Source: Chthoniobacteraceae bacterium | GTDB taxonomy: Bacteria; Verrucomicrobiota; Verrucomicrobiia; Chthoniobacterales; Chthoniobacteraceae | Reading direction: 5' to 3' | Assembly (NCBI GenBank): GCA_031409655.1 | Contig: JANNXQ010000107.1 | Span: 64,001-128,000, forward strand | Length of the DNA: 64,000 nucleotides | Part shown: piece after piece, positions 1 to 53,289 of the stretch | Layout of the letters: each line of letters starts with the position of its first letter | How positions within the stretch are numbered: position 1 is the first letter of the stretch | The notes under the pieces: generated by a model | The model's input: only the letters and a program-made list of their open reading frames with translations | The model's database searches: none | What the model was told of the DNA's origin: nothing | Position numbers and translations under genes: made by a program

Positions 1-85
1 TTTGCGGAGGTGCTGCTGCGAATGTGTCACGCCCCGGCTTTCTTCCCGGTGCGCGTGGCGCGTTCCGCCTCCTGACTTTCGATCC

Positions 86-1237
86 GTGCTCACGGATTTC
101 CTCGCCCGTCTTTTGCCACGCCCGGTGCGGCGCGCGCTGCGAGCACCGGCGGATGCAGTTTCGCGCAGGAGGTTTCGCGCGCAGCTCGCAGCGTCGGATT
201 TCACCCTGGCGCAGGGCGCGCCGGCTCTCCACTACGGCGGCGCTCTGCCGCGCGGCTCCGGCGCACTCGTGAGCGGTGGCCGGGTGAAACTCACGCACCT
301 CGACCGTGCCTTTCCCGAACAACACACGAGCTATAATGTGCTCTACCTCGTCAGCAGCGCGATCCCGGCGCAGGCGCTGGAACTCGTGCGCTGGGCCAAG
401 TCGCGCGGAGTGCGCTTCGTCTGGAATCAAAACGGCGTCGCGTATCCGGCGTGGGCGGGAAAGTTCACCCGCGATGTGAATGATCCGATGCGGGCGCTGC
501 TGCAGGCGGCGGACTTCGTGGTCTATCAAAGCGAGTTCTGCCGCGAATCCGCGGATCGACACCTCTGCCGCGCGAGCTGCGAATCCGCGGTGCTTTTCAA
601 TCCCGTCGATCATGCCGTCTTTGCGCCAGCGCCAACTCCCCTGCCCCCCAGCCCGCTGCGACTGCTCACAATGGGCACGCACACCTACGCCGATCGCGTG
701 CTGGTGACGCTGCGTTGTCTGGCGGACCTCCGACGCGGGGACCGCGATGCCACCCTCACGATCGCCGGACGGCTCCAGTGGGAGAACGCAGAGTCCGACG
801 TGCGCGACGAAATCTCCAAGCTCGGCCTGCGCGAGCACGTCACGCTGCGTCCCGCGTTTTCCCAGGCGGAAGCCGCGGAACTGTGCCGATCGCATCACCT
901 GCTCCTGCATGCGAAGTACATGGACCCATGTCCCACCGTAGTGATCGAGGCGCTCGCGTGTGGCCTTCCCGTGGTCGGCTTGGAAAGTGGCGGCCTGCCG
1001 GAACTGGTGGATGCGCGGAGTGGGCGGCTGATTCCGGTTCCGCGGGATTGGGACACCATGCATACGCCGTCTCCCACGCAGTTCGCGCGAGCGGTAAAAG
1101 AGATCGCGGATCGCCGGCCCGAATTTAGCGCGCACGCGCGGCGGGGCGCCGAGGAACGATTCGCGGCAGAGCGATGGGTGGACCGGCATCGGGAGATTTT
1201 CACGCAAGTCCTCAAGTCCGCGAAGGTGTCCGCTTGA
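86..1237 (+). CDS. Glycosyltransferase family 4 (GT-B)
   Basis: DPCPTVVIEALACGLPVVG..SGGLPELV GT4 C-terminal motif; start placed at in-frame GTG 86 (ORF track runs from 2). Confidence 0.85.
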   Translation: MLTDFLARLLPRPVRRALRAPADAVSRRRFRAQLAASDFTLAQGAPALHYGGALPRGSGALVSGGRVKLTHLDRAFPEQHTSYNVLYLVSSAIPAQALELVRWAKSRGVRFVWNQNGVAYPAWAGKFTRDVNDPMRALLQAADFVVYQSEFCRESADRHLCRASCESAVLFNPVDHAVFAPAPTPLPPSPLRLLTMGTHTYADRVLVTLRCLADLRRGDRDATLTIAGRLQWENAESDVRDEISKLGLREHVTLRPAFSQAEAAELCRSHHLLLHAKYMDPCPTVVIEALACGLPVVGLESGGLPELVDARSGRLIPVPRDWDTMHTPSPTQFARAVKEIADRRPEFSAHARRGAEERFAAERWVDRHREIFTQVLKSAKVSA

Positions 1238-32016: not shown

Positions 32017-33624
32017 CTATTGGCTCGCCGCAAACCGACCCTTCCAATCTGTGCGCGGGGAGAGCGCCTGCGGCTTGATGTCGCCCAGGCGACGGCCGGC
32101 GGCGGTGCAGGTCGTGGAGAAAATGTGGTAGCCGCGGGTGACTGCAACGTAGGTGACCGGGCCGAGTTGGCCGAGGTCGCGGCAGAGGGCATAGTGGGGA
32201 TTCGTCCGCAGTTCGGCTTCGAGGCGGGCGGGAAGTTCGGGTGAGAAATCGCCTTCGGCGAAAAGGGTGTAGCACCAGCCTCCCTCGGCCGCGCACTCCG
32301 GGGCGAGCAGGGCGAAGCACGGCGCGCATCCGCAGGACGCGCACGCGGCCGCGATGGCGCGGGTGACAAACGTCTCGGTGAGTTTTTCGCCGCATAAGTC
32401 TGAGACGCTGGCGCCGCGGCCGAGGAAGCGCAGCGAGGGTGTCGCGCCGACGAAGCCGTCCACTTCCACGAGGTCGCCGAGCCGGTAGCGCCACAGGCCG
32501 CCGCTGGTGGTGACGATGACGGTGTAGCTCTCGCCGCTCCGCAGTTCGTGGGCGCGCAGCACGTCGCCGCGCGCGGCGGCGAACTCGAAGAAATGCGACG
32601 TGACGGCGAGTGGATGTTTTTCGCGAAAGGGAATCGAGACGAACGCTTCGGTGGCGAGCAAACCTTTGCTCTGCAACGCCACGCCGGGCAGCCGTCGCTG
32701 CAACTCGGCGAAAGGCAGCGCCGCCTGCGCATCGCCCCAGCAACTCACCAACCGCAAGTGCGGCCAGAGCGCGCGCGCGTCCGCCGGGCCGGCCCGCCGC
32801 AGTTCCGCAGCGCGGCGCGGGTGCGGCGGGGCATCCACGGCGGCGCGGATTTCTGGCGGTAGCTGAGCCGCGCGCTGGCAGCTCCCATTCGTCACATCAG
32901 CGACGCATTCCTCCCATCGTGCCGGAAGCGCATCCAGCAGCAGCGTGAAAAAGGAAGGGTGCCAGACCGATACGAGCCGCAACTCCGGCTGGCGCAGGAG
33001 GCAGAGCAGTGTGAGGTAGCGCGCCGTCTCCACATCCGCGACCAGCCGCAGCGCTGAAGGCACGGCGAAGGTGGACTCGGCGAGACGTTGCTGGAGGCCG
33101 CCGAGATACGCGCTGTCGTCATCGAAACCGATGGGCATCGCCGATGGCTCGTCGGAGGCGGGCATCGCGGGGGAGATGGACCAGTAGGCCGGGCCGAGCG
33201 GGACGGATGGATGTTGCCGGCAGAGGTCCGCCATCCACGGACCGATGGCGCGATTGAGTTCGCGCTGAAATGAAGCGGTGTAGGGGATGAGTTTTCGCCC
33301 GCCCGTCGAGCCGCTGGTCGGGACGAGGCGGGTGACGGGCTCGCGGGTGAGGACGGACTTTTCGCCGCGCACAATGCGCGCGATCCACGGCGCGAGATCG
33401 TCGTGGTCCACGATGGGCACGCGCTCGCGGAATTCCTCGTAGCTGCGGATGCTTTCAAAGCCGTGCGCGCGGCCATACGCACTGGCGGCGTCGCGCGCGA
33501 GCAGGCGGCGCAAAATATCCGCCTGCGTTTCCGCCGGACGCAGCAGCGCGCGGCGAAAGCGCTGCCACGCGCGGAGGCTGGTCGCGAGCCAAACCCCGTT
33601 CGCCAGCGCAGGGAACCACTTCAT
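32017..33624 (-). CDS. GH3-family acyl-adenylate/amido synthetase
   Basis: PTSGSTGGRKLIPY, LLATEA, GLWRYRLGDLV, GEKL; start at ATG 33624 (ATGA overlap). Confidence 0.85.
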   Translation of the reverse strand: MKWFPALANGVWLATSLRAWQRFRRALLRPAETQADILRRLLARDAASAYGRAHGFESIRSYEEFRERVPIVDHDDLAPWIARIVRGEKSVLTREPVTRLVPTSGSTGGRKLIPYTASFQRELNRAIGPWMADLCRQHPSVPLGPAYWSISPAMPASDEPSAMPIGFDDDSAYLGGLQQRLAESTFAVPSALRLVADVETARYLTLLCLLRQPELRLVSVWHPSFFTLLLDALPARWEECVADVTNGSCQRAAQLPPEIRAAVDAPPHPRRAAELRRAGPADARALWPHLRLVSCWGDAQAALPFAELQRRLPGVALQSKGLLATEAFVSIPFREKHPLAVTSHFFEFAAARGDVLRAHELRSGESYTVIVTTSGGLWRYRLGDLVEVDGFVGATPSLRFLGRGASVSDLCGEKLTETFVTRAIAAACASCGCAPCFALLAPECAAEGGWCYTLFAEGDFSPELPARLEAELRTNPHYALCRDLGQLGPVTYVAVTRGYHIFSTTCTAAGRRLGDIKPQALSPRTDWKGRFAASQ

Positions 33625-34340
33625 CGCCGGGAAAGCGCGGCCATCCGCCGGCCAGCGGGCGTCAGGTTGGCCTCGCTGATTTCCGTCAGGCACGCGAGCT
33701 CGTCGCCGTTGGCATGGCCGGGATTGCGCGCGAGGAAAAAGGCGATGTCGGCATCGGCGGTGCGTCCCTCCGGCACGTCGCGGAGTGGTCCGCGGAGTCG
33801 CTGGGGTTTGAGAAAGCGCACGATCCCGGCAGTGGCATCGTAGCAGTCGCCGTAGCGCGCGCGGGCGAGGTGCTCGAGCAGCGACTGGGTGCTCGTTGAC
33901 GCGCCGTGGCGGGGAAAAAACTCGCGCCAGAAAACCGGCAGGAAGCGGTAGGTGCGAAAGCCGGAGGTAAGCAGCAGCCAGTAGCAGGGCCGTCCCGGCG
34001 AGGCCGCGAGCAGATGATTCACGGCGGCGATCCAAGTGCGGGCGAGCGCGGGCGAGCCCCACGCCTCCGGCGCGACGATGGTGTCGCCGGAATAGATCGC
34101 GGTGAGCGGGCGACCGTCGAACTCTTCGCCGGAGACTAGGAGCGTGGAGAAGCCGAGCAGCCGACCGTCGCGCCGGATTTCCACCACCCAGTTTTTCTCC
34201 GCGAGATCGCGCTCGAACTGCTCTCGCGTCACCCCATCGAAATGTCGCGAGAGGAGCGCAAACATTTCGTCGCGCTGCGCTCCAGAAAGCGCGGCGCGCG
34301 GCAGCAGACCATGGACCGGCTGGGGCATCGTCCCGGTCAT
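33621..34340 (-). CDS. GNAT-fold-like protein
   Basis: LLGFST, YSGDTIVAPEAWG, SGFRTYR; operon-coupled. Confidence 0.6.
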   Translation of the reverse strand: MTGTMPQPVHGLLPRAALSGAQRDEMFALLSRHFDGVTREQFERDLAEKNWVVEIRRDGRLLGFSTLLVSGEEFDGRPLTAIYSGDTIVAPEAWGSPALARTWIAAVNHLLAASPGRPCYWLLLTSGFRTYRFLPVFWREFFPRHGASTSTQSLLEHLARARYGDCYDATAGIVRFLKPQRLRGPLRDVPEGRTADADIAFFLARNPGHANGDELACLTEISEANLTPAGRRMAALSRR

Positions 34341-35596
34341 AGCAGCGCCAAGTCGGGTAAAAATGCGCCGCACGTCTTCGGCGCAAGGAGCGGCGACATC
34401 CCTGTCGCCGACCCACCCACCGCGGCGGAGCCGCCCATATTTTCTGAAAGGAGATGGCTGTCACCAGCGAGCGCGGGGAGGATTTGGCGCTTCGCGCGAT
34501 CGGCAACGGCGACAGGGATGTCGCCGCTCCTTGTGGCGTCCGGCCAGCTCACGCGATATAGGCGGCTGCGCCAGGTGCGGGTGGAAAAGCGGCAGCGCAG
34601 CATGGGCAGACGCGGGTCGATGGTCGGGAGTGCGAGGGTGAGAAATTCCACACCCGCGCGGGCGGCCAGCGGGAAGAATACTTCGATGAAATCCGGCAGC
34701 ATCGCCTCCGCGCCTTCGGCGAAAGCGAGCGGCGAGAGGAACGCGTGGGCGAGCACCGCGCCCGGCCGCGGCAGGCGCGGCGTGCCGAGGACGCGGCTCG
34801 CGAAGTTCACGAACGGGCGAGCGACAGCGAGCGCGCGGGAATAGCCGTGAATCACCGTCTGCCGAAACCCGCGCTGATCCCAGAGCGCACCGCACGCGAC
34901 GACTTCATCGCCGTCGAATGCGAGAAGGAAACTCTCCAGTGGCAGGCCGTGCGTCGCCAACGCCGCGAGATTTTCCGCCGTCCATACCGCGGCGAGTTCG
35001 TGCCGCCGCCCGTGCTCGTTCAGCACGCGGAGCAAATCGGGAACGCGTTCCGGCGTCGCGGACTCGACCCGCAGCCGCGCGGTGCGGGGGCGACGCGGGA
35101 CGGCCACGAGCAGCGTGTCCAGCTCCGCGAGAAAGGCATACGCCGGCAGTCCGCGCACTCCGCTTTCCAGCAGCCGTCGGGCGCGCTCATTGTCGGCGGC
35201 GATGCTCGTGAAATAGACCGCTGCAGGGTCGTCGCGTTGCAACTCGTGGAAGAACTCGTAGCCGTCGCGCACGATCCCAAAGCGCCCGCGCGCCGCAGCA
35301 TCGAGACGCAACTCCGCGAGGTAACCGACCCGCGTTTCCCGCCCATCCACCCAGCACTCCCGCTCCGTGCAGCGCCCCATGCACACGAGCCGGGCGCCGT
35401 CATGCGCGATGATCGTTTGATCCACGCCGCCCGCGAGGTCCGCGCGGCGAAAGTAATCCGGCTCGCGCTCGAAGCCGACGCTCACCGCGCCGCGCATCGG
35501 GTTTTCGCGGAGCAGCCGCCGGAGCGCGGCATCGTCCGCACGCGTGGCGACGGCGAAGCGCGTCGTCAGTTCGCGAGGAGCAGCGGTCCCTGCCAT
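34337..35596 (-). CDS. GNAT-fold-like protein with in-frame palindromic insertion
   Basis: FEREPDYF, VGYLAELRL..AARG, SIAADNERARRL; start uncertain (ATG 35596 or CTG 35569). Confidence 0.65.
   Translation of the reverse strand: MAGTAAPRELTTRFAVATRADDAALRRLLRENPMRGAVSVGFEREPDYFRRADLAGGVDQTIIAHDGARLVCMGRCTERECWVDGRETRVGYLAELRLDAAARGRFGIVRDGYEFFHELQRDDPAAVYFTSIAADNERARRLLESGVRGLPAYAFLAELDTLLVAVPRRPRTARLRVESATPERVPDLLRVLNEHGRRHELAAVWTAENLAALATHGLPLESFLLAFDGDEVVACGALWDQRGFRQTVIHGYSRALAVARPFVNFASRVLGTPRLPRPGAVLAHAFLSPLAFAEGAEAMLPDFIEVFFPLAARAGVEFLTLALPTIDPRLPMLRCRFSTRTWRSRLYRVSWPDATRSGDIPVAVADRAKRQILPALAGDSHLLSENMGGSAAVGGSATGMSPLLAPKTCGAFLPDLALL
34384..34533. repeat. REP-doublet (REPIN-like) element, 27-bp perfect inverted repeats
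   Basis: CAAGGAGCGGCGACATCCCTGTCGCCG at 34384-34410, reverse complement at 34507-34533; span 150 bp. Confidence 0.9.
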
Positions 35597-36924
35597 GATT
35601 CGTCTCCGAGCGGGTAGTAGTCGCGCAGGCTCACGTCGCCGCGATGCATGGCGTTGATGAGGTAAAAATTCCGCCACATGAAACCGTTCGCGCGGTTCAC
35701 GGCATCGAGCCCTCGACGCATGATGCTTTTCCACGAATAGAACTGCCGCCGCGCGCCGAGGCAGCCGCGCTGCAACTCCTCCGCGCTCATGCCGTGCGGG
35801 ACAAACGGGATGCGGTTGTAGCTGTATCGGTCGTCGAGCCACCACGCGTCGTAGAGCAGGCGGCCTTCGTCCGCGAGGCGGCGGTAGAGCGGCGTGCCGG
35901 GGAAGGGCGTGAGGTGGTTGAACGCGGCGATATACATGCCGTGCTGCTGCGCGAAGTTCACCGTCTCGTCGAAGCTCGCGGGCGTGTCGCCGTCGTAGCC
36001 AAAGACGAACGTGCCGTAGATGCGGACGCGGTGCTTGCGGAGGTTCTCCAGCGCCTTCGTGAAGCCGCCGCGCGCCGTATTGAAGGTCTTGTTCATCGCC
36101 GCGAGGTTCGCGGGATTCAGGCTCTCGAAACCGATGAGCACGCCCTGGCAGCCGCTGCGCCGGAGCAGGTCGAGAAACTCCTCGTCGTGCGCCGCATTGA
36201 TGCTCGACTGCCCGACCCAGCGGATGCCGAGCGGGATCAGTTCGCGGAAGAACTCCTTCGCCTGTGCGAGGTTCGACGTGATGTTGTCGTCCACGAAAAA
36301 GAAGAGCTTCTTCGTGTCCTTGAGCGCGCGCAGTTCCGCGATTATCTCGTCCGCGGGCCGGCGCGTCTGGCTCTGCGAAAAGACCGTCTGCACCGCGCAG
36401 AAGTCGCATTTGAAATGGCAGCCGCGCCCCGCTTCCACGAGGCCGATGGGCAGGTAGCGCTTCCCGCGAAAGATCGAGCGGTCGGGCCGCAGTCCGCGCA
36501 GATCGGTGCGGCCGGTGGAGCGGTAGAATTTTTCCAGCCGACCGTGGCGGGCATCGTCGAGCACGCGCGGCCACAGCACCTCGGCCTCGCCGGTGACCAC
36601 CGCGTCGGCATAGCGCGCGACTTCATCCGGGCAGAGGCTCGGGTGGAAACCGCCCATGACCACCGGCACGCCTCGCCGCCGGTATTCGCTGGCGATCTGG
36701 TAGGCGCGTTTGGCGGTGTAAGTCTCCACGCTCATCGCCACGAGATCGGTCCGCTCGTCGAAGGGAATCGTCTCCATCCGATCGTCGTAAAACTTCACCT
36801 CCACATCGCGCGGCGTGAGTCCGGCGAGAGTGGCGGCGGGCAGCGGTTCCATCTGCCACGTGCGCACGTAATCGCGCTCGCCGCGCCGGCGCCCGATGCA
36901 GGGGTGGACGATGGTGAGTTTCAT
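35566..36924 (-). CDS. B12-binding radical SAM protein
   Basis: VVMGGFHPS, RGCHFKCDFC, FVDDN, PFPGTPLY. Confidence 0.9.
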   Translation of the reverse strand: MKLTIVHPCIGRRRGERDYVRTWQMEPLPAATLAGLTPRDVEVKFYDDRMETIPFDERTDLVAMSVETYTAKRAYQIASEYRRRGVPVVMGGFHPSLCPDEVARYADAVVTGEAEVLWPRVLDDARHGRLEKFYRSTGRTDLRGLRPDRSIFRGKRYLPIGLVEAGRGCHFKCDFCAVQTVFSQSQTRRPADEIIAELRALKDTKKLFFFVDDNITSNLAQAKEFFRELIPLGIRWVGQSSINAAHDEEFLDLLRRSGCQGVLIGFESLNPANLAAMNKTFNTARGGFTKALENLRKHRVRIYGTFVFGYDGDTPASFDETVNFAQQHGMYIAAFNHLTPFPGTPLYRRLADEGRLLYDAWWLDDRYSYNRIPFVPHGMSAEELQRGCLGARRQFYSWKSIMRRGLDAVNRANGFMWRNFYLINAMHRGDVSLRDYYPLGDESWQGPLLLAN

Positions 36925-38285
36925 ACGTCGGCGGTTTCAAAAACCCGCACCGGTGCCGACGGCGCGCGGCCGATGATCCAGTCGCAGTTGTAAAAGCGGC
37001 TGAGATTGTGCGCGTAGAAACGGTAGCCGAGATTCGTGCCGATGCGCACCGGCCACGGCGCGGGCGAGCGACGGAGTCGGCGGAAGATGCTGCGGAAACT
37101 GTAGGCGTGCTTCCACGCCGTCTCGATGCCAGTTTGCAGCTCTTCCACGCTCATGTGCTTCGGCTGAAAGACGACGTGCTGCGCGTCATAAAGCTCCCAG
37201 TCCTTCGTGAGGATGCGGCCTTCGGCTTCGAGGCGTTTGTAGAGCGGCGTGTTCGGAAACGGCGTGACCACGGCGAAGCGCGGGAGGTCGATCCCGGCCT
37301 CCACGGCGAACTGGGCGGTCTTCATGAAGACGTCCGGCTTGTCGTCATCGAGCCCGAATACGAAGCACCCCTGCAGCGCGATGCCGTGCGCGTGCAGGCG
37401 CTCGACGACGCCCGCGTAGTCGCCGGGTGAATTGAAGCCCTTGTGGTTCTGCCGCAGGTTCGTTTCGGAGATGGATTCCAGGCCCATGAGCAGACCCTTG
37501 CACCCGCTCCGCCCGCAGAGTTCAAGCAGCTCGGGATCATCCGCGAGCAGCGTCGTGGCGAGGCCATACCATTGGAGCCGCAGCGGGATGAGCGCGGCGA
37601 AAAGCTCCAGCGCGTAGCCGCGATGCGCGATGAGATTCAGGTCCACGAAGATGAGTTTCCGCGCGCCGTGCTGGCGGATGTCGGCGACGACTTCGGCGAC
37701 GGGCTTGTGAAACGGCTTCCGTCCCCACGCCGTCGGCACCACGCAGAAATCGCAGCTATGCACGCAGCCGCGCGTCGCCTCGAAAACATTGCTGGTCAGG
37801 AAGTGCCGCGCGGGCAGCAGATCGCGCCGCGGAAAGGGCCGCCCGCCGATGTCGAGTCCCGGCGCCTGCTGGTAGCGCGCCCGCATTTCGCCCGCGGCGA
37901 AATCCCGCAAGAGCTGCGGCCACGTGTCCTCCGCGTAGCCGACCACGAGCGCATCGGCGTGCGGCTCCGCGTCCTCGGGAATGAGCGTCACATGCGGTCC
38001 GCCGAGCACCACCGCGATACCGCGCGCCCGGAAGTGATCCGCCAGTTCATAAGCCCGCCGCGCCGTGCCCGTGATGACCGTGAGCCCGATCAGATCCGCG
38101 TCCAAATCAAGCGGCACATCCGCGATGCCTTCGTCGATCAACTCCAACTCCGCCGGCACATCGTCCGGCACCAGCGCCGCGAGGGTCGTGAGCGTGAGCG
38201 GCTGGTAGCGCAGCGACTTTTTCCAAATCCCGCCGCGATGCCGGTAGAGCGGACCTTTGGGGGAAATGAGAGCGATGCGAATCAC
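36921..38285 (-). CDS. B12-binding radical SAM protein
   Basis: VVLGGPHVT, RGCVHSCDFC, PFPNTPLY; GTG start at 38285. Confidence 0.9.
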   Translation of the reverse strand: MIRIALISPKGPLYRHRGGIWKKSLRYQPLTLTTLAALVPDDVPAELELIDEGIADVPLDLDADLIGLTVITGTARRAYELADHFRARGIAVVLGGPHVTLIPEDAEPHADALVVGYAEDTWPQLLRDFAAGEMRARYQQAPGLDIGGRPFPRRDLLPARHFLTSNVFEATRGCVHSCDFCVVPTAWGRKPFHKPVAEVVADIRQHGARKLIFVDLNLIAHRGYALELFAALIPLRLQWYGLATTLLADDPELLELCGRSGCKGLLMGLESISETNLRQNHKGFNSPGDYAGVVERLHAHGIALQGCFVFGLDDDKPDVFMKTAQFAVEAGIDLPRFAVVTPFPNTPLYKRLEAEGRILTKDWELYDAQHVVFQPKHMSVEELQTGIETAWKHAYSFRSIFRRLRRSPAPWPVRIGTNLGYRFYAHNLSRFYNCDWIIGRAPSAPVRVFETADV

Positions 38286-38391
38286 GCCGCAGAGGCTAGG
38301 TGTGAACGCAGGGCGCGGCAAAATTGAAAACGGCAATGCTGGAATCGATTTTTTGAATGCAACAATTCCCGAAGTGCCCGGGTATCTCTTG

Positions 38392-39336
38392 ATGAAGTCA
38401 ATGATCGCGACTCCTTCCACTCAGCCGCTGGCGGTGCCCAATCGGCTGAACCTTTGTCTCCTGCTTGGGCAGCTCGCCGTCATCGGCGTCTGCATGTTCA
38501 CGCTCAGAAGAGTCGAAAGTTGGTGGGCGCTCGCGGGGGTGGCCGTGATTTTCGGTATCCTGATGAACTCGGTCTATTCGATCATCCATGAGGCGGAGCA
38601 CGCGATGCTGTTTTCCAGTCGCCGATGGAATGACCTCGCAGGCAGCTTGATGGCGCTGTTTTTTCCTGCGCCTTTTCATCTCATCCGACAGGGGCACCTC
38701 GGGCATCATCTGCGCAATCGTTCGGACGATGAGGCGTTCGATTTCTACTTCGAGGAGGATCACAAGCTCTGGAAAATTCTCGTGCTCTACGGGATTCTGA
38801 CCGGCCTGTATTACGTCGTCGTAGCGTTGAGTAATGTCGTGTTCCTCGTGCTGCCGTTTCGAGATGATAAGAAATACTGGCACGTGGATCAGGCTTCGAC
38901 CGCTTTCATGGAGTCACTCAATCTGCGTTATCGTTTGGTAATCCGGCTCGAATGTGCGGCTGCGATCGCGCTGCACACCAGCATCGTGTGGCTGCTGGAG
39001 ATTCCGATCGGGCACTACCTCGTCATGTATGCGGGCTTCGGGCTGATGTGGTCGGGGATGCAATACGTGCATCACTACGGCACCGAGCGGCACGTCACCC
39101 GCGGAGCGCGGAATCTGTGGATCTGGAAGCCGCTCGATCTGCTGTGGCTGAACCACAACTGGCATCTTACTCATCACCTGCACCCATCCGTGCCGTGGCT
39201 GTATCTGCCGGAGACTGGTGTGGAGGGAAATGCGCAGCGCGGCTTTCTGCTCACGGCGTATCTGAAAATGTGGCGCGGGCCAAAGCTGGCGCCAGGGCGC
39301 GTGCCGAATCAGCACGCGGGCAAGGTTATCTCCTGA
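38392..39336 (+). CDS. Membrane fatty-acid desaturase/hydroxylase
   Basis: His boxes HEAEH, HLGHH, HLTHH(LHP). Confidence 0.85.
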   Translation: MKSMIATPSTQPLAVPNRLNLCLLLGQLAVIGVCMFTLRRVESWWALAGVAVIFGILMNSVYSIIHEAEHAMLFSSRRWNDLAGSLMALFFPAPFHLIRQGHLGHHLRNRSDDEAFDFYFEEDHKLWKILVLYGILTGLYYVVVALSNVVFLVLPFRDDKKYWHVDQASTAFMESLNLRYRLVIRLECAAAIALHTSIVWLLEIPIGHYLVMYAGFGLMWSGMQYVHHYGTERHVTRGARNLWIWKPLDLLWLNHNWHLTHHLHPSVPWLYLPETGVEGNAQRGFLLTAYLKMWRGPKLAPGRVPNQHAGKVIS

Positions 39337-40231
39337 GCGCGGCAGCGACGATGCCCGTCAAAAGCGGGAGCACATCCCACGGTGGCATGAGGTAGTGATC
39401 CGCGCCCCAGATCGGGCAGACGATGCCTGGTAGTTTCGGGCAGTCGCCGAGCAGGATTCCGCCGCCGTCATTCGGGCCGAGCGGCGCAAGACGCCTGTAT
39501 CCTCGGGTAGCCCACGGGTGCGCGAGATGCCTCCGGATCGGAAACCCGCAGACGCGGACGCTGCGCAAATGCGCCGGGAGCGCGGGCCACGCCAGGGTCG
39601 CGTCATACCGGAGGTCGTCCAGCGCCCGTGCGCTGTGCCCGTGCCACCAAAGCCACATCCGCACGCTCCACCAGCGCAGTGGGTGACGCCGCAACCAGTC
39701 GATCAGGGGCGTGCCATGCACGATGCCGCTGAAACTCACCCACGCGAAGGTCGTGGCGAAAGCCGATGCAGCTTCCGGTAGGGAAAGAGCCCGCTTCACC
39801 TCAGTCCCGCCCTTACTGAGGCTGATGAGCGCAACGTTTTTGCCGCGATGCGCGGCGAGCCAGTCGAGTATCACGCGGGCATTTTCATTCAGCGTCCCGA
39901 AGCTTCCGGTCGGGATCACCTCGGCTACGCAGCCCAACTCGCACGCGATTGCGAGCACCCGCGCACCAGCCGCGCCGGTGTTCCAAGGCTCGCGATGAAA
40001 AGCGCCGGGCACGATACCGATCAGGTCGGCGCAGAAATTCTCCGGTCGCCGCATTTCGTGGGCAGAATGAAGAAATGCCGCATTCGCCGGCACCCGCAGG
40101 ATGCGGTCGTGGAGGAGCGCGGTGGCAAAGTCCAATCCTTCGCCCCGCGCCAGTTCCACGAGATCGCCTTCCTGGCCGGTCCACGCCGCGGCTCGCGCAA
40201 GCAACCGCGCATCCTCGTCCGCGAGGATCAC
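39326..40231 (-). CDS. Lipase-like alpha/beta hydrolase
   Basis: IVPG, SLSKGG elbow, NDG, ADH; GTGA overlap. Confidence 0.65.
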   Translation of the reverse strand: MILADEDARLLARAAAWTGQEGDLVELARGEGLDFATALLHDRILRVPANAAFLHSAHEMRRPENFCADLIGIVPGAFHREPWNTGAAGARVLAIACELGCVAEVIPTGSFGTLNENARVILDWLAAHRGKNVALISLSKGGTEVKRALSLPEAASAFATTFAWVSFSGIVHGTPLIDWLRRHPLRWWSVRMWLWWHGHSARALDDLRYDATLAWPALPAHLRSVRVCGFPIRRHLAHPWATRGYRRLAPLGPNDGGGILLGDCPKLPGIVCPIWGADHYLMPPWDVLPLLTGIVAAALRR

Positions 40232-40827
40232 GTGTGGCCTGTTTTCCGGGTGACGAGGCGCGAAACCACGATACCCAGCAGCAAGCCCACCGCGCCTCCA
40301 CCAAGGCCCAGCCACAGCGCGATCTTGCGCGTGGCCAGTGCGAGCACGGGATTTTCAAACACGCTGACGGAGGTGTGGAAAGCCGTGACGAGCCAGCGAT
40401 CGCCGCGCTTGGCGATGGTGGCGGTGAAGACACTGTTGAAAGGGAGGTCGGAGCCATCGGTGAGCACAAAGTGATCGCGCAGATTTCCCCAAGACACCGC
40501 CCAATCGCCGTAAATATGCCGCCCGAGCACCTCCGGCTCCGATTTGATCTCGCGCACCACGCGTTTGTCGCCGGTCATCATCCGTCCGTAAAAGGCATGC
40601 ACCGCCTCCGGACCGCGGCAGACTTCGCCATTTTGCCAAGTCACTACGACATCGGGATCGAGATGAGTGAGGAGGCCGTCAATGTCACCCTTGTGGAAAC
40701 TAGCTGTGAGCCCGTCGCGCAACCGGGTGATCGCGGCAGCCGCCTCGTCCGCATTCGCCGGTGGAGGGGACTCGCAGAGGCCGGGAACGAGCAGGGCGAG
40801 GAGGAAGGAAACGATAAGCCTTTTCAT
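40228..40827 (-). CDS. Exported NTF2/SnoaL (DUF4440)-like protein with C-terminal TM
   Basis: Signal peptide, GDIDGLL, RGPEAV, WLVTAFHTS. Confidence 0.75.
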   Translation of the reverse strand: MKRLIVSFLLALLVPGLCESPPPANADEAAAAITRLRDGLTASFHKGDIDGLLTHLDPDVVVTWQNGEVCRGPEAVHAFYGRMMTGDKRVVREIKSEPEVLGRHIYGDWAVSWGNLRDHFVLTDGSDLPFNSVFTATIAKRGDRWLVTAFHTSVSVFENPVLALATRKIALWLGLGGGAVGLLLGIVVSRLVTRKTGHT

Positions 40828-40844
40828 GGAGATGCGGACTTCGG

Positions 40845-41840
40845 CTAACGATGGATGTTTTGCAGCCAGCCGAGGTATTCGACCAGTACTTTGTCCGCTG
40901 CGATCATGCGGTCCGGACGAAAGCGGATGCCTGCCGAGCGGTTCACATCAGAGCGCACAAACGCACGGATGAAAGACCGCCGGATGAGCGCGTCCACGGG
41001 ATCGACCAATAGGCGTGCGATCCGATTTTCGCTGCGCGGCACGCAGACGATGTTCCGCACCTTCGTTCGATCTTTGTCGAGCGGAGTGAAGCTGACGATT
41101 CCGTAGCTGGTCGTGCGCCGAAACTTTGCGGTGACCAGGACGAGATTTCCGCCCCAATTTTCCACGGTCATTTCCACTTCTGAACCCGAAACCCAGCGAG
41201 TGAGTCGATCGCGGAACGATTCACCCGTCACTTGAAACCTCGCCCGCAAGCGCCAAGCGAAAGGGTGCGGAGAATCAACGATCGGCTCGCCGAGCAAAGT
41301 GCGATCGTGCGCGCAACGGAAATGCTGCACGTCGAAACCATTCGCGCTGACGAGATACCAGGGCGCATCCACCGTGAACTCGAACGGCCGCGCCGCGAGC
41401 AGGTCGGTTTCGCACGATCCGGCGAAAAACGGGAATTCGAACCGGGCCTGCGGGCGATTGAAAAAGAACACGTGTCCGCCGCGCACCGTGATCGGAAAAC
41501 TCGGCTGCCGCGCGAACAACGGGATTTCCTGAGAGTTTGGAATGTGTTCGCAAACTCCAGTGTTCGCGTATTCCCAGCCGTGGAGTGGGCAGGAGATGCG
41601 GCCACCTTTCACGCAACCCAGCGAGAGATCTGCCCCCATGTGACTACAGCGTCCCCCGAGCACGGCCACGGGCTGTCCCGGAGGTTGAAACGAGACGTAG
41701 GTGTGGCCACCCGGAAGATCGAGTCGGCGCGGCCCGGCTGCGATTTCGCGAACGCTCCCGAAGTAATACCAAGACGCCGGGGCCGGGGCGAATCCCCAAA
41801 GGCTTGCGTCGTCATGAGAATACTCGCAGGAATCTTTCAA
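40845..41840 (-). CDS. Rieske non-heme iron oxygenase alpha subunit
   Basis: CSH...CPLH Rieske motif and NGFDVQHFRCAH iron motif; start uncertain (TTG 41840). Confidence 0.85.
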   Translation of the reverse strand: MKDSCEYSHDDASLWGFAPAPASWYYFGSVREIAAGPRRLDLPGGHTYVSFQPPGQPVAVLGGRCSHMGADLSLGCVKGGRISCPLHGWEYANTGVCEHIPNSQEIPLFARQPSFPITVRGGHVFFFNRPQARFEFPFFAGSCETDLLAARPFEFTVDAPWYLVSANGFDVQHFRCAHDRTLLGEPIVDSPHPFAWRLRARFQVTGESFRDRLTRWVSGSEVEMTVENWGGNLVLVTAKFRRTTSYGIVSFTPLDKDRTKVRNIVCVPRSENRIARLLVDPVDALIRRSFIRAFVRSDVNRSAGIRFRPDRMIAADKVLVEYLGWLQNIHR

Positions 41841-41904
41841 GGTCGTGATGCAACCAACACCGCAAAGTTTCAGCAAGGACGGTCCCGGCGGATTGAGTAA
41901 CGTG

Positions 41905-42552
41905 ATGGCAAAGCGGCAGTTTTTCGCCTGGCCGGGCTGGTCGCACCTGCGTTTTGCCTGGCTGCTTTCGGCATTGAGCGCGGCGTGGTTCGCCAGCATT
42001 TACATCGGCTGCAACTGGGTGACGACGCACCGGAGCATGCGCGTGCCGATCCATCTCCCCTCCGAGCTTTCCATCCCGTTCATCCCCAGCGCGGTCTCCA
42101 TCTACATGAGCATCTACGTGCTCTTTCTCGCCGGCCCCTTCATCGTCCGCGATCGCCGTGAATTCGCCGCACTCATCCGAGCTCTCGCGCTGGCGACGTT
42201 TATCGGCGGGGTCGGATTCCTGCTCATCCCATCACAACCCGCGTTTGCGCCACCCAGCGACCTCGGCATTTGGAAAGACCTCTTCCACTTCGCTGACCGA
42301 ATCAATCTTGATTGCAACATGGTGCCCTCGCTCCACGTCGCGCTCTCCGTCTGCTGCATTGCCGCTTTTGGCCGGCACACTTCTCTGCGTGGGCGCACCG
42401 TGCTTTGGATATGGGCGGTTACGATCGCGCTTTCAACTCTCTTCACTCACCAACACCACGTCCTCGATGTCGTAACTGGCTGGGCAGTGGGGATCGTCAG
42501 TTCTCTAGTCATACGGCTCGGCAATGTGAATTTGCTGAAACTCCACGGTTAG
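41905..42552 (+). CDS. PAP2/Aur1-like membrane phosphatase or phosphotransferase
   Basis: PSLH and HQHHVLDV motifs, about 6 TMs. Confidence 0.8.
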   Translation: MAKRQFFAWPGWSHLRFAWLLSALSAAWFASIYIGCNWVTTHRSMRVPIHLPSELSIPFIPSAVSIYMSIYVLFLAGPFIVRDRREFAALIRALALATFIGGVGFLLIPSQPAFAPPSDLGIWKDLFHFADRINLDCNMVPSLHVALSVCCIAAFGRHTSLRGRTVLWIWAVTIALSTLFTHQHHVLDVVTGWAVGIVSSLVIRLGNVNLLKLHG

Positions 42553-42766
42553 ACCACACGCTCAGCGCCAGCCGCGATCTCGAGTTTTCATCCGGGCGCG
42601 GGCACTCGGAGTGATCCAGCGCGCGGAAGAAATGCTCGAACAAATCCTGCGCGAAGTGCTTCGCGCCCATATCGCAAGGCACACGAAATAGTTCGCCCAT
42701 GCAAAGTCCATGTTGCTGAATCCATTCCCGCGCTACTTTTTGCCCATCGGATTCCCCCCCAATCCC

Positions 42767-45700
42767 ATGAATGCGATCGCCTACCACAATCGCGCACGGA
42801 CCGGATGGCTGGCCGGTGCGCTCTGGATAGCCTGGCTCACTGCGCTCGGTGCGCAGGTCGTCCCTTACGACATCGTCTATGTGCGGCAGCCGCGCTTTGG
42901 CGATGGCACGAACACGACCTGGCCGGAGGTCTTTCATCCCGCGCGCATCGACCCCGGCGCGGACCTCATGCTGCTGCATCCCGATGGGTCGGAGGAAGTG
43001 CTCGTCGCCGGCGGGGATGGCGCGGTCACCGATCCTTTCCTCTCCTTCGACGCGCAGTGGTGTTATTACGCGCTGCTGCCGGATGTGCGGCCTTCGGCGG
43101 TGAACTATCAGCGCGGCGATCTGCCTTACGCAGGCAGCGACATTTACCGCATCCATCTCGGGACGCGCGTAGTGCAGCGGCTCACTCATCAGGAGTGGAC
43201 GCCGAACACCGCGGCCGGCCACTGGCACCCGACCGATCCGGTGAATCCACCGTCCACTTACAACCGCCTCGGCTACGGCATCGTGAATCTCGGGCCGTGT
43301 CCCCTGCCGGGTGGAAAGATCGCGTTCACCAGCAATCGCAATGGCTTTCAACCAACGAAGACTTTTACGAATCCGTGTCTGCAACTTTTCGTGATGGATG
43401 AAGATGGCGCGAACGTGACGTGGATCGCGCCGATGAGCTTTGGGAGCGCACTACATCCGACGATCCTGCGCGATGGGCGCATCATGTTCAGCAGTTACGA
43501 GAGCCAGGGCCTGCGCGATGAGCGGCTGTGGGGCATCTGGGCGATCTGGCCGGATGGGAGGCAATGGAAGCCGATCGCGAGTGCGTTCAATTCACCGCAG
43601 GCGTTTCACTTCATGACCCAGTTCGGCAACGGCGACCTCGTGGTCTGCGACTACTACAATCTGAATAACAACGGCTTCGGTGCGCTCTATCGCTTCCCGG
43701 TCAATGCGCCGCCGGGACAGCCGGACTTTCACTCCGCCTTTATGACGGATGCGCCCGCCATCCGGCAGACCGTTGGCGCGGGCTACGAGTATCCACTGAA
43801 GTTTCCCTTCGAGCCGCGCGGGATATTTTCGCTCACGCCTTTCACCACCGGTCAGGATGAAGCGGCGCCCGTGGGCGCGGGCGGCGTGCGCGTGGGAAAA
43901 TTCACGCAGCCCAGTGCGGCTCCGAATAACGATCTGCTGGTCGTCTGGACGCCCGGCCCGGCGAATGATCTGAACCGCCCGACCACGCTGCCTGCTTACA
44001 ACGCCGGCATTTATCTCATGCCCGGCGGGAATCCCGTCGAAAGCCCGCAAGGGCTCGTGCTGATCAAGAACAGCCTGGCTTACAACGAGGCGTGGCCGCG
44101 CGCGGTGGTGCCGTATCGCGCTGTGCATGGCATCGCTGAACCCGCGCGCCTGCCGTGGCTGCCGAACGCTGGCACCGTGCATCCCACGTTGCCGCGCGGC
44201 ACGCCGCACGGACTCGTCGGCACGAGCAGCTTCTACAAGCGCGAGAGTTTTCCCGGCTATGTCTTGACCTACGACGATCACTTCAATGGCCTCGACGCCT
44301 TTAACACCGATCAAAACGGACAAAGTTCAAATTGGTTCTATCAGGGCTCGGACGCCGGGCGTTACGCGAACTCCGAAGTTTACGCCGTGCGCATCCTTGC
44401 CATGGAGCCAGGCAGCCATCGAAGCTACGGGCCGAATGAAGGCGCGCAATTCTACAGCCACGCCAATGAGCGCCTGCGCATCCTCGGTGAGATCCCGCTG
44501 CGCAAGCCAGGCGTGACTGATCCGGAAGGAAATCCGGACACGAGTTTCCTCGCGAAGATTCCCGCGGATACGCCGTTCACCTTCCAAACGATCGACCGCG
44601 ACGGCATCGTGCTGAACATGGCGCAGACGTGGCATCACGTGCGGCCCGGCGAGATGCGCGTCGATTGCGGCGGCTGCCACGCGCACAGCCAGCAGCCGCT
44701 CGCTTTCTCTCAGACCGCCGCAGGCCAGCCTGGCTTCACACCCGTGGATCTCACGGCGATCCAGACCATGCTCACGAAAGATGCCGGCGGTGCCACCGTC
44801 GTGCAGACCAACCCGGCCGGTGCGCGCAATGTGGAATTCCTCCACGACATCCGCCCCTTGCTCACGCGGAGCTGCGTGCCCTGCCACAACACCGCCACCG
44901 CCGCCGGCAATCTCGTGCTCGATCAACTCACCTCCGTGCCCGGGTCGAATGGCCGGCCCGCGCTGCCCGGCGACTACGCGCGCCTCGCCGCGGATCAAAG
45001 CGCGAACTGGGGTTACCCTCCGATCATCGGCAATCGCACCTGGCGGCAGACCAATGCGAGCCGCTACGTCCGCATGTTTCAAAGCCGCCGCTCCATGCTC
45101 ATCTGGAAAATTTTCGGCCGTCGTCTCGATGGTTGGGCAAACTCCGATCACCCCACCGAAAGCACCCCGGGAGTCGCTGCAACATTGCCGTCCGGGGCGG
45201 ATCGCAATGCCGCCGACCTCGACTACACCGGCACGCCGATGCCGCCGCCCGGCAGCGGCGTGCCCGCACTGAGCGAGGATGAAAAGATGAACTTTGCCCG
45301 CTGGGTCGATCTCGGCTGCCCGATCAATGTCGGCCAGCTCGAGAGCGCGCAGGCCGGCGCACTCGGTTGGTTCCTCGATGAAAATCGGCCCACGCTCACC
45401 GTCTCCTCACCGCGGCCAAACATTAACGCTGGCCCGCTCAACGAAATCCGCATCGGCATCGCCGACGCCTACACCGGCGTGAATGCCGCGACGCTATCAG
45501 TCACGGCAGACTTCGTCGTGAACGGCCGCGGCGCCGGAGCCCAGCTCGCCGATCTCGCGACGACCGTCGCACCAGGCGTCTATGCGATCCCACTTTCACC
45601 ACCGCTCGCGAATCTCGCCGCCAGCCACATCACCGCCAGCGTCGCCGATGGGCAGGGCAATGTGACGCGGATCGACGTCCGCTTCTCCGTCCTCCCCGAC

Positions 45701-45940
45701 GCGCTCGAGCTGCGCCACATCGCGCGCTTCGCCGGTCGGGTCCACCTGCGCTTCTACGACACTCGGCCCGACTCCCGCCGCCACATCCGCTACAGCGCCG
45801 ACCTCCTCACGCCACGCGCCACGTGGCTCGAGGCGCCCGTGCTCTCAGAATCCTGGACGGCCACCAACGAATGCACCGCCGAGATCGCGCTCCCGGCCAG
45901 CCTTTCGAGCCGCGGCTTCTTCGTCATCGAACGCGAGTGA
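42767..45940 (+). CDS. Secreted hydrazine-synthase-alpha-like beta-propeller heme protein
   Basis: TolB-like repeats (GKIAFTSNR, DGRIMFS), FLAKIPADTPFTFQTID, CGGCH and CVPCH, Ig-like tail. Confidence 0.75.
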   Translation: MNAIAYHNRARTGWLAGALWIAWLTALGAQVVPYDIVYVRQPRFGDGTNTTWPEVFHPARIDPGADLMLLHPDGSEEVLVAGGDGAVTDPFLSFDAQWCYYALLPDVRPSAVNYQRGDLPYAGSDIYRIHLGTRVVQRLTHQEWTPNTAAGHWHPTDPVNPPSTYNRLGYGIVNLGPCPLPGGKIAFTSNRNGFQPTKTFTNPCLQLFVMDEDGANVTWIAPMSFGSALHPTILRDGRIMFSSYESQGLRDERLWGIWAIWPDGRQWKPIASAFNSPQAFHFMTQFGNGDLVVCDYYNLNNNGFGALYRFPVNAPPGQPDFHSAFMTDAPAIRQTVGAGYEYPLKFPFEPRGIFSLTPFTTGQDEAAPVGAGGVRVGKFTQPSAAPNNDLLVVWTPGPANDLNRPTTLPAYNAGIYLMPGGNPVESPQGLVLIKNSLAYNEAWPRAVVPYRAVHGIAEPARLPWLPNAGTVHPTLPRGTPHGLVGTSSFYKRESFPGYVLTYDDHFNGLDAFNTDQNGQSSNWFYQGSDAGRYANSEVYAVRILAMEPGSHRSYGPNEGAQFYSHANERLRILGEIPLRKPGVTDPEGNPDTSFLAKIPADTPFTFQTIDRDGIVLNMAQTWHHVRPGEMRVDCGGCHAHSQQPLAFSQTAAGQPGFTPVDLTAIQTMLTKDAGGATVVQTNPAGARNVEFLHDIRPLLTRSCVPCHNTATAAGNLVLDQLTSVPGSNGRPALPGDYARLAADQSANWGYPPIIGNRTWRQTNASRYVRMFQSRRSMLIWKIFGRRLDGWANSDHPTESTPGVAATLPSGADRNAADLDYTGTPMPPPGSGVPALSEDEKMNFARWVDLGCPINVGQLESAQAGALGWFLDENRPTLTVSSPRPNINAGPLNEIRIGIADAYTGVNAATLSVTADFVVNGRGAGAQLADLATTVAPGVYAIPLSPPLANLAASHITASVADGQGNVTRIDVRFSVLPDALELRHIARFAGRVHLRFYDTRPDSRRHIRYSADLLTPRATWLEAPVLSESWTATNECTAEIALPASLSSRGFFVIERE

Positions 45941-52900: not shown

Positions 52901-53289
52901 CCGAGCTTGGCGACCACGCCCGCGGGTAGCGCGCCGTCGAGGAAGTTCAGCCGCTCCAGAATGCGCTGCCGGGCGGCGGAATTCTCGACGTCTTCCTCAA
53001 AGATGACCGTGATCAGCGAGAAGCCGAACATGCTCGTCGCGCGCACCGTCTTCACGCCCCCGAGTCCCTGCAAATTCACCGACAGCGGATACGTGACCTG
53101 ATCCTCGACCTCCTTCGGACTGCGACCCATCCAGTCGGCGAACACGATGACCTGGTTTTCGCTCAGGTCCGGGATCGCATCGACGGGCGTGTGCTTGAGC
53201 GCGCGGATGCCGAACGCGATCAGGAACAGCGTGGCGCACGCGACGAGGAAACGATTCCTCAGCGACCACGTGATGAGGGCGTTGATCAC
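49936..53289 (-). CDS. cusA: CusA/CzcA heavy-metal RND efflux permease
   Basis: DAIPDLSENQVIV, LGPDATGLGW, AIGVLVDAAIV, RLRPKVMT; contains ~54-codon insertion. Confidence 0.92.
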   Translation of the reverse strand: MINALITWSLRNRFLVACATLFLIAFGIRALKHTPVDAIPDLSENQVIVFADWMGRSPKEVEDQVTYPLSVNLQGLGGVKTVRATSMFGFSLITVIFEEDVENSAARQRILERLNFLDGALPAGVVAKLGPDATGLGWVYQYYLEVDQTKSPNGRGYDLGELRSLQDWFIRYQLNSVPGVAEVGSVGGFVRQYQIEVDSQKMRAVGVSLDMVMMAVGRSNLNVGGKTIEESGMEFVVRGVGLIESAEDLGKIVLMEKDGAAICLRDVARIELGGDFRRGTLDVDGHEVVGGTVVMRTGENARDVITRVKAKIAQLSSSLPPGVVIKAFYDRSELIDRTIGTLKRALTEEILLVTLAHIIFLFHFRSILIVTLPLPVSILISFILMREFGITSNIMSLAGIAIAIGVLVDAAIVLTENVIRRCEEAERGVPGSTRVSRVGEGVSPSRTSECVHTHEAPTDIESAGKSVEAGRLDQHARRVCYPDVVLHAAKQVGRPIFFAMAIIILAFVPVFALTGQEGKMFRPLAFTKTFAMIGSTLLAMTIVPVLCTWLVRGPFRSEERNIVMRFLLKLYDPVLDFALSHRKTVLAGAAIILAAALALIPRMGTEFMPPLNEGSLLFMPSLVPATALTEVKRVMAWQDQVLASFPEVRSAVGKLGRADTATDPAPTEMIETTIMLKPESEWRLGMTKQKLIAEMMDALRQVPGSVPGFLQPIEGRVLMIFTGIRSQLGVKILGDDLRKLQQAAFDVQRIVQEIPGATGVAPSRIQGKPYLEIRVNRDAMIRYGMRAQDVLDVVEVGLGGKTVATTIEGRNRTPIQVRLERSEREDLTRLKDVLVTAPPGPDGKPGKVIPLGQLADIQRVEGPNEIASENGRLRAYVQANVNGRDLGSFVEEVKTRVQRDIAPQLAAQGMTVEYSGEYENQIRAAQTLKWIVPSVLFIIFLLLHLLYGKAREAAHVLLAVPFALSGGVFLQYALGWHFSVAVWVGYIALFGTAIQTAVVMVVYLEEAVQRKRQQLGAAFAHSDLIAAVKEGARLRLRPKVMTVATIVASLLPIMWSHRTGSEVMKPLATPVIGGMLSSLLHILIVTPVIFLWLRGRDLHPMPVRETSPNADNFDATR
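51842..52003. repeat. GTAG-type REP doublet, 30-bp perfect inverted repeats, in frame within cusA
   Basis: TCCGGGTAGCACACGCGTCTCGCGTGTTGG at 51842-51871, reverse complement at 51974-52003; span 162 bp. Confidence 0.9.

Follow-up and report, generated by a model that had tools for sequence, protein, structure and literature searches.

A ten-gene cluster in the genome of a Chthoniobacteraceae bacterium (Verrucomicrobiota) represents a real, widespread and uncharacterised pathway, in our judgement a new form of GH3-dependent amide-lipid synthesis. The cluster occupies positions 32017 to 42552 of the stretch of 64,000 nt that was analysed (contig JANNXQ010000107.1 of assembly GCA_031409655.1, positions 64,001 to 128,000), referred to below as the window. 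Genes for two GNAT-fold proteins (GNAT1 and GNAT2) and a GH3 protein form a constant core, and a pair of B12-binding radical S-adenosylmethionine (SAM) enzymes (rSAM1 and rSAM2) and five accessory genes are optional. In other genomes a Rieske oxygenase takes the place of the rSAM pair. The reading that we favour, while granting it slightly less than an even chance, is that a carrier-independent pathway builds an amide-linked lipid and then oxidises and decorates it, and that the rSAM pair acts as an oxygen-free oxidase and not as methyltransferases.

Organisation and distribution of the cluster

The ten open reading frames (ORFs) are intact and have the orientations given in the initial annotation. 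rSAM1, rSAM2, GNAT1, GNAT2 and GH3 follow one another on the minus strand; a plus-strand desaturase gene, a minus-strand Rieske-NTF2-hydrolase operon and a plus-strand PAP2 gene complete the set. Overlaps of 4 bp at the rSAM1/rSAM2, GNAT1/GNAT2, GNAT2/GH3 and hydrolase/NTF2 junctions, together with the ORFs, Pfam matches and predicted folds, bear out the ten genes and the overlapping operon first described. The core and radical SAM features are:

32017..33624, minus strand: GH3, core; predicted acyl-adenylating amide ligase, 535 aa (Pfam GH3 N-terminal and middle domains)
33621..34340, minus strand: GNAT2, core; single GNAT-fold acyltransferase of no named family, 239 aa (AlphaFold model)
34337..35596, minus strand: GNAT1, core; tandem GNAT resembling N-myristoyltransferase (NMT), 419 aa; the start may lie about 10 codons later
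34384..34533, no strand assigned: in-frame insert within GNAT1, 150 bp with 27-bp terminal inverted repeats
35566..36924, minus strand: rSAM2; B12-binding radical SAM protein with DUF4070, 452 aa (three domains over the Pfam cut-off)
36921..38285, minus strand: rSAM1; B12-binding radical SAM protein with DUF4070, 454 aa (three domains over the Pfam cut-off)

NCBIfam equivalog cut-offs, PDB profile matches and Pfam cut-offs served to identify the cluster proteins. GH3 (E 3.6e-54), FA_desaturase (2.4e-25), SnoaL/NTF2 (8e-8), Rieske (1.6e-15) and PAP2_3 (2.2e-11) were all matched over the Pfam cut-off. GNAT1, GNAT2 and the hydrolase had nothing over it; predicted folds settled the identity of the two GNATs and a profile match to the esterase MGS0156 that of the hydrolase. 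Catalytic motifs are conserved across the cluster proteins in alignments of their homologues.

Because the intergenic gaps measure at most about 110 bp, a gene for an acyl carrier protein, polyketide synthase (PKS), nonribosomal peptide synthetase or precursor peptide cannot fit inside the cluster, as had been annotated. No carrier protein, synthase module or precursor gene was found within the cluster or among the recurring neighbours of related loci. Four flanking ORFs were absent from every related locus compared, so the bounds of the cluster appear to be correct. Contigs of four DNA runs from one study span the stretch with zero indels, and each cluster gene is single-copy in the source genome. 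The G+C content is about 66–69% in the core half, about 61% in the accessory half and 63% in the genome. A sigma-70 promoter scan gave zero matches and was uninformative.

A scan of GTDB species anchored on rSAM2 yielded at least 581 confirmed stretches, of which the best 80, many ended by contig edges, were analysed. These come from Verrucomicrobiota, Gemmatimonadota, Acidobacteriota, Planctomycetota, Myxococcota and Chloroflexota, with rSAM2 identities of 71–95%. rSAM1 is present in 78 of the 80, GNAT1 in 76, GNAT2 in 71 and GH3 in 67, and the accessory families in 39 (desaturase), 37 (PAP2), 30 (NTF2), 30 (Rieske) and 20 (hydrolase). The synteny search that had been proposed as a check therefore shows wide co-occurrence: all ten families stand together in 16 of the 80 loci, in three phyla and 8 gene orders, and two complete loci have every gene on one strand. 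When the hydrolase was the anchor, 11 of 80 loci held all ten families; among the hydrolase-anchored metagenome loci of at least 10 kb, core genes were found in 15 of 21 and were absent within the retrieved flanks in 6. The ten-family co-occurrence and these 15 loci argue that the accessory genes belong to the system.

An even sample of 400 Verrucomicrobiota genomes, probed with GNAT2 alone, gave 19 loci, with GNAT1 in 19, GH3 in 18 and all ten families in one. A search of 40 core-bearing genomes (defined below) detected the hydrolase in 2. The ten-gene unit as first drawn thus reflects a real co-occurrence but is not fixed: the five accessory genes and the rSAM pair are optional, and the part that stays constant is the GNAT1-GNAT2-GH3 core. 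AurF-like di-iron proteins, a hexapeptide-repeat membrane protein, extra desaturases and extra B12 radical SAM genes also recur as accessories. Two apparent fusions were rejected, GNAT1-GNAT2 in locus L024 as an artefact of an N-run and AurF-hydrolase in L172 as a probable deletion.

In four phyla, about 2–8% of the genomes sampled carry the GNAT2 marker (19/400, 20 strong hits in 300, 20/240 and 4/240). The nearest related locus is in a genome of the same family. Cultured hosts illustrate how the surroundings of the trio vary. 	In Acinetobacter baumannii the trio is the only part present, and genes for EmrA, EmrB and a TolC-type channel are interspersed with it. Burkholderia arboris has the trio with three desaturase domains, PAP2, a hydrolase (marginally similar to that of the window, E 0.04), a ferritin-like protein and a Rieske enzyme; an rSAM2 match was absent from the trio-bearing replicon, the one replicon searched. 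A Citrobacter plasmid carries the trio with five radical SAM genes, PAP2 and NTF2, and in Azospirillum GNAT2 sits in a different gene context. Records L086 and L089 (3.5 and 4.0 Mb), labelled as plasmids, look like chromosomes from their size.

The Acinetobacter arrangement bears on a reading in which the core makes or conjugates an exported small metabolite (a signal, a surfactant or a detoxified acid) and not a membrane lipid. The patchy spread (GH3 in 2 of 40 relatives and 0 of 3 within the genus) would agree with it, as would the occurrence of GH3 genes in natural-product clusters and the fact that GNAT2 is as close to LasI and FeeM as to other GNATs. However, related loci repeatedly contain membrane desaturases, PAP2, MMPL and a membrane-anchored NTF2 protein, and the high identity of rSAM2 over six phyla among the 80 best loci suggests a conserved substrate. 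We consider an exported metabolite unlikely.

The core trio

GH3 is likely an ATP-dependent amide-forming enzyme, as predicted from its sequence. PF03321 (184.5 bits) and PF23571 (63.6 bits) both score over 23.6, and PF23572 stays under its cut-off at 18 bits. Plant GH3 structures are matched at E 6e-24, and the three nucleotide-binding motifs described in PMC12493201 are located at residues 103, 321 and 375. The Lys of motif I is found in 68 of 68 homologues and the Ser in 62 of 68. GH3 enzymes had been introduced in the initial annotation as plant enzymes; this needs correction, since the bacterial GH3 OlsH is already characterised, and it is the only characterised bacterial GH3 lipid enzyme (PMC12493201). 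At 53.9 bits against the OlsH equivalog cut-off of 620, the window protein falls outside that family.

Structure prediction supported the GNAT folds suggested at the outset (predicted local distance difference test, pLDDT, 89 for GNAT2 and 88 for GNAT1). Fold comparison of GNAT2 gave matches tied at Z ~11, among them LasI (Z 11.0, root-mean-square deviation (rmsd) 3.4, 159 residues aligned), with no clear best relative. GNAT2 and GH3 form one fused ORF in L082, and MMPL is fused to GNAT2 at a related locus. A distant GNAT2 subfamily (L210–L220 and L087) stands alone, with GH3 and GNAT1 not nearby.

GNAT1 holds two adjacent GNAT domains. A possible likeness to bacterial ceramide synthase is unsupported in the comparison with PDB sequences and NCBIfam, in which GNAT1 gave zero matches. 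Its model superimposes on yeast NMT (2p6e) with Z 21.4 and rmsd 3.8 over 304 aligned residues, 8..419 on 75..455, and MAB_4324 is tied with NMT at Z 21.8. The final residue is Leu in 129 of 140 complete homologues. Residue 419 aligns with residue 455 of yeast NMT, an agreement of position only, and Eis-type chains also align to 419. In NMT, which shares the tandem GNAT fold, the C-terminal carboxylate, that of L455 in yeast, is the proposed catalytic base (PMC7048800, PMC4964394). From the model we infer that GNAT1 is an active N-acyltransferase with a C-terminal carboxylate base of the NMT type. In contrast to NMT, GNAT1 is bacterial, its identity to yeast NMT is about 11%, and a peptide substrate is not indicated. 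The NMT-like fold and the conserved C-terminal Leu would also fit acylation of a protein or peptide by GNAT1, as by a true NMT, with the cluster building the acyl group; we regard this as very improbable, because identity to NMTs is 7–12%, small-molecule tandem GNATs score equally, and a conserved small target ORF was not seen in the loci among genes of at least 70 aa.

The insert within GNAT1 leaves the C-terminal motif intact and is missing in seven aligned homologues. Partial copies lie on 5 other contigs, a depth spike is seen in all four DNA runs, and the pLDDT of the model drops below 50 at residues 378–407. The insert resembles a small mobile repeat that the coding sequence tolerates.

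The radical SAM pair and a Rieske oxygenase replace each other

rSAM1 and rSAM2 are 38.5% identical, and the cysteines of the CX3CX2C motif are invariant in 73 of 73 and 97 of 97 aligned rows, respectively. With this motif and a B12-binding domain, both have the features of class B radical SAM methyltransferases. Both score below every NCBIfam cut-off (BchE, HpnJ, HpnR, PhpK; best 94 bits against 481–650). The best match of each is BchE (94 and 76 bits, cut-off 481), followed for rSAM2 by HpnJ, and the top PDB profile match of the pair is AprD4, a dehydratase by its NCBIfam name.

The counterpart of the pair is a VanA-type Rieske oxygenase, here called RieskeB and distinct from the window's own clade A Rieske protein. 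The exchange was scored in 40 core-bearing genomes: the source genome, 19 of the same phylum and 20 of the Myxococcota group with strong GNAT2 hits. In that group 31 of 301 genomes had any GNAT2 hit; the seed genome was left out of the set, as were 11 places with weak matches (27–96 bits, L210–L220), which have no core genes nearby and were excluded from all exchange counts. An rSAM2 orthologue (E 1e-120 or better, identity at least 46%) was found in 29 of the 40 genomes and RieskeB (E 1e-56 or better) in 12, such that 28 have the pair only, 11 RieskeB only, one both and none neither. In rSAM-free loci of the Myxococcota group, RieskeB lies within the retrieved 20 kb in 8 of 10 cases. rSAM2 orthologues occur in 11 of the 301 genomes of this group, all of them GNAT2-bearing.

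The pattern was examined again in 24 independent loci of the Planctomycetota and Acidobacteriota groups, 18 of them scored from the locus only: the pair is present in 9, RieskeB in 9, both in 0 and neither in the locus in 6. Four of these six were examined genome-wide, and all four have RieskeB and lack an rSAM2 orthologue. A GNAT2 tree of 70 rows, which omitted Acinetobacter, Azospirillum, six unresolved loci and most rSAM2-anchored loci, contained 6 state changes, and its 6 independent pairs all ran in opposite directions (median p 0.031). Of the 40 genomes, 14 lack a match to PF00115 (cytochrome oxidase), and every one of these uses the rSAM pair. Loci with an O2-dependent enzyme number 0 of 14 in these genomes vs 16 of 25 in the others; judging from length and score, three of the PF00115 hits, all weak, may represent NO reductases.

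Since the pair and RieskeB replace each other, the pattern points to O2-independent oxidation more than to methylation. Radical SAM and O2-using iron enzymes are described as catalysing the same oxidation in different organisms for BchE/AcsF and BciD/CAO, in which BchE is cobalamin-dependent and CAO belongs to the Rieske enzymes (PMC7242693). Those systems differ in acting on tetrapyrroles and in having a single radical SAM enzyme, whereas the clusters here have a conserved pair. Of the methylated, oxidised acyl-amide or membrane lipid first proposed, the carrier-independent GH3 acyl-amide is supported, in keeping with OlsH, and it is the word methylated that the alternation makes doubtful.

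A less probable alternative is that the same amide lipid is made with the pair as cobalamin-dependent C-methyltransferases, the mutual exclusion with RieskeB then reflecting two different end products. Some clusters carry at least four B12 paralogues, and the NCBIfam and PDB neighbours of the pair include the methyltransferases PhpK, TokK, CysS and TsrM. The B12-binding, radical SAM and DUF4070 architecture of both proteins is that of the methyltransferase HpnP (PMC10697835), which argues in the same direction. The activity of HpnP-like proteins is confirmed only within the HpnP clade, according to PMC10697835, and the cluster loci lack hopanoid genes. Methylation, however, leaves unexplained why nearly all core genomes hold exactly one of the two modules, and the top matches are an oxidative cyclase, BchE, and AprD4, at scores far under cut-off.

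Besides the HpnP-like layout, several observations weigh against an amide-lipid pathway with an oxidising rSAM pair. GH3 is far from OlsH in score, and the GH3 of the legionellol cluster (lol1) is dispensable according to PMC5640695. Homologues of RieskeB are frequent outside this system (82 of 301 Myxococcota-group genomes), and for this reason presence at the genome level alone is weak evidence. The tree test comprises 6 pairs only, and omitting rows with neither trait favours a negative link. Aerobes, including the source genome, also use the rSAM pair; A. baumannii has the trio with neither module; genome G658 has both; and L195 combines RieskeB with a divergent radical SAM protein.

Additional genes accompany either module in some loci. 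L092, L094, L098, L099, L100 and L103, mostly from PF00115-free genomes, have 1–3 extra non-B12 radical SAM genes, often accompanied by a small membrane protein. Some of these radical SAM proteins are Tes- or TrsS-like (below cut-off), and one Tes/TrsS-like protein has an HMPTM zinc ribbon. Clusters of the RieskeB type (L104, L183, L206) have recurring FG-GAP/ASPIC-UnbV proteins, one of them fused to a desaturase and an RnfD-like domain, and an unnamed membrane protein of 170–200 aa.

The accessory genes

The five accessory genes of the window are:

38392..39336, plus strand: membrane di-iron desaturase or hydroxylase, 314 aa (PF00487)
39326..40231, minus strand: alpha/beta serine hydrolase or transacylase, 301 aa (profile match to MGS0156)
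40228..40827, minus strand: NTF2/SnoaL-fold protein, 199 aa (Pfam, hydropathy), predicted periplasmic
40845..41840, minus strand: Rieske non-haem iron oxygenase, clade A (Pfam); start approximate
41905..42552, plus strand: PAP2-superfamily membrane enzyme, 215 aa (PAP2_3)

The desaturase has three conserved His boxes and 4 predicted hydrophobic segments, and its best NCBIfam match, a weak one, is the beta-carotene hydroxylase CrtR. The hydrolase matches the esterase MGS0156 (PDB 5D8M) at E 1.3e-12 with Ser, Asp and His aligned, and this triad is invariant in 17 of 17 homologues. Rieske oxygenases bind their cluster through CxH and CxxH motifs and their iron through a D-x-x-H...H site; in the clade A protein the second cluster motif and the iron-site D, H and H are found in 30 of 30. 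Its closest solved relative is the steroid 9-alpha-hydroxylase KshA (E 5e-15, with the best stretch in the Rieske domain). The beta subunit of a ring-hydroxylating dioxygenase is a soluble cytoplasmic partner of the Rieske subunit. The NTF2 protein was considered for this role and rejected, as hydropathy, the one criterion applied, gives it a hydrophobic N-terminus and a C-terminal membrane segment; by the same measure its homologues have an N-terminal hydrophobic stretch in 23 of 27 cases and a C-terminal one in 22 of 27.

The PAP2 enzyme is likely a lipid phosphotransferase, to judge from sequence. The PSLH and HxxxD motifs (C2 and C3) are present in 34 of 34 proteins, and K-x6-RP, the C1 motif of PAP2 lipid phosphate phosphatases, is absent from 33 of 34. 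A weak NCBIfam match is to phosphoinositol dihydroceramide synthase (E 0.001). The second PAP2 gene of the source genome adjoins a hydrolase gene in an unrelated two-gene pair, which we take to be ynbCD-like.

Several of the nearest named relatives act on isoprenoids, namely KshA, the sterol monooxygenase SdmA, CrtR, HpnP and, in anaerobe loci, Tes-like radical SAM proteins. They raise the possibility of an isoprenoid scaffold (polyprenyl, triterpenoid or carotenoid-like) whose oxidation would yield an acid for GH3 to amidate. A fusion of PAP2 with a DDxxD-type, isoprenoid-synthase-like domain occurs at L058:17174-18550, L080:3533-5074 and L193:3576-5048, and L037 has a free gene of the squalene/phytoene-synthase family. 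We nevertheless doubt this origin: all such matches are weak and below cut-off, a cyclase or prenyltransferase is not a regular neighbour in related loci, and the core is present in Acinetobacter and on a Citrobacter plasmid.

In L036 and L102, a pyridoxal phosphate-dependent enzyme (cysteate sulfo-lyase-like, and fused to a radical SAM domain in L102) and a thiamine pyrophosphate-dependent enzyme adjoin the core, a hint that the head group contains sulfur in some forms of the cluster.

Proposed pathway

The genes, their motifs, their synteny and the exchange pattern are established, and from them we infer every catalytic step and the product. GH3 would adenylate a carboxylic acid with ATP and couple it to an amine, by analogy with OlsH, which uses a fatty acid and ornithine. 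GNAT2 and GNAT1 would attach further acyl groups, the C-terminal carboxylate of GNAT1 serving as base. One oxidative step would then be carried out by rSAM1 and rSAM2 here and by the VanA-type Rieske oxygenase elsewhere. In the source aerobe, an optional membrane module may finish the product: the desaturase and the clade A Rieske enzyme would introduce double bonds or hydroxyls, the serine hydrolase may re-acylate in the manner of OlsI, PAP2 would transfer a phospho-head group, and the periplasmic NTF2 protein may bind the lipid or handle the product outside the inner membrane. The clues that the product is a lipid are the OlsH/OlsI parallel, the NMT-like GNAT1, and MMPL, MacB/FtsX, EmrAB-TolC and fatty-acid hydroxylase as neighbours in related loci.

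Comparison with known systems

The initial annotation named no characterised product for this gene set, and a matching pathway was likewise not found in the literature searched. No paper describing the set was found in a search whose scope excluded most subscription journals and supplements, and the available part of a 2026 amino-lipid review does not mention radical SAM, GNAT or Rieske enzymes. The closest characterised system is OlsH/OlsI, the ornithine-lipid pathway of Singulisphaera acidiphila, in which OlsH joins a fatty acid to ornithine (PMC12493201, PMC12971839). Both systems are carrier-free and have a GH3 with three nucleotide motifs and an alpha/beta-hydrolase in the same cluster; in contrast, the OlsHI operon, as described in these sources, contains nothing equivalent to the two obligate GNATs, the rSAM/Rieske module, the desaturase, PAP2 or NTF2. 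The legionellol lol1 cluster likewise contains a bacterial GH3 gene but has PKS or acyl carrier protein genes and lacks the GNAT pair (PMC5640695). On the Streptomyces plasmid NZ_CP027299.1 (L189), GH3 lies in a type I PKS cluster with a P450 and a threonyl-tRNA synthetase, again without the GNAT pair. This layout is presumably borrelidin-like, and its GH3 is the protein we take to be BorL.

Two genes outside the cluster deserve mention. At 42710-45940 (plus strand) a secreted-looking protein of 1076 aa has a hydrazine-synthase alpha middle domain and haem-binding-like CxxCH motifs; it is not conserved beside the cluster. At 49936-53289 (minus strand) a CusA-type efflux gene seems to carry a low-complexity insertion of about 50 residues that keeps the reading frame and may be a further repeat element.

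Implications

We suggest, more tentatively than the pathway itself, that the product belongs to a new, widespread class of bacterial amide lipids made by a carrier-free GH3 and a myristoyltransferase-like enzyme, with the rSAM pair oxidising an unactivated carbon as the anaerobic twin of a Rieske oxygenase. If true, this would be a new aerobic/anaerobic enzyme pair beyond tetrapyrrole and quinone synthesis. Oxygen-free oxidation of a lipid would represent a new chemistry, and the product could serve as a record of redox conditions. The exchange of the pair with RieskeB is a direct handle on the role of two highly conserved orphan B12 enzymes, and the presence of the trio in cultured Burkholderia, Citrobacter and Acinetobacter means that a lipid or metabolite of wide reach can be searched for in strains that can be grown.

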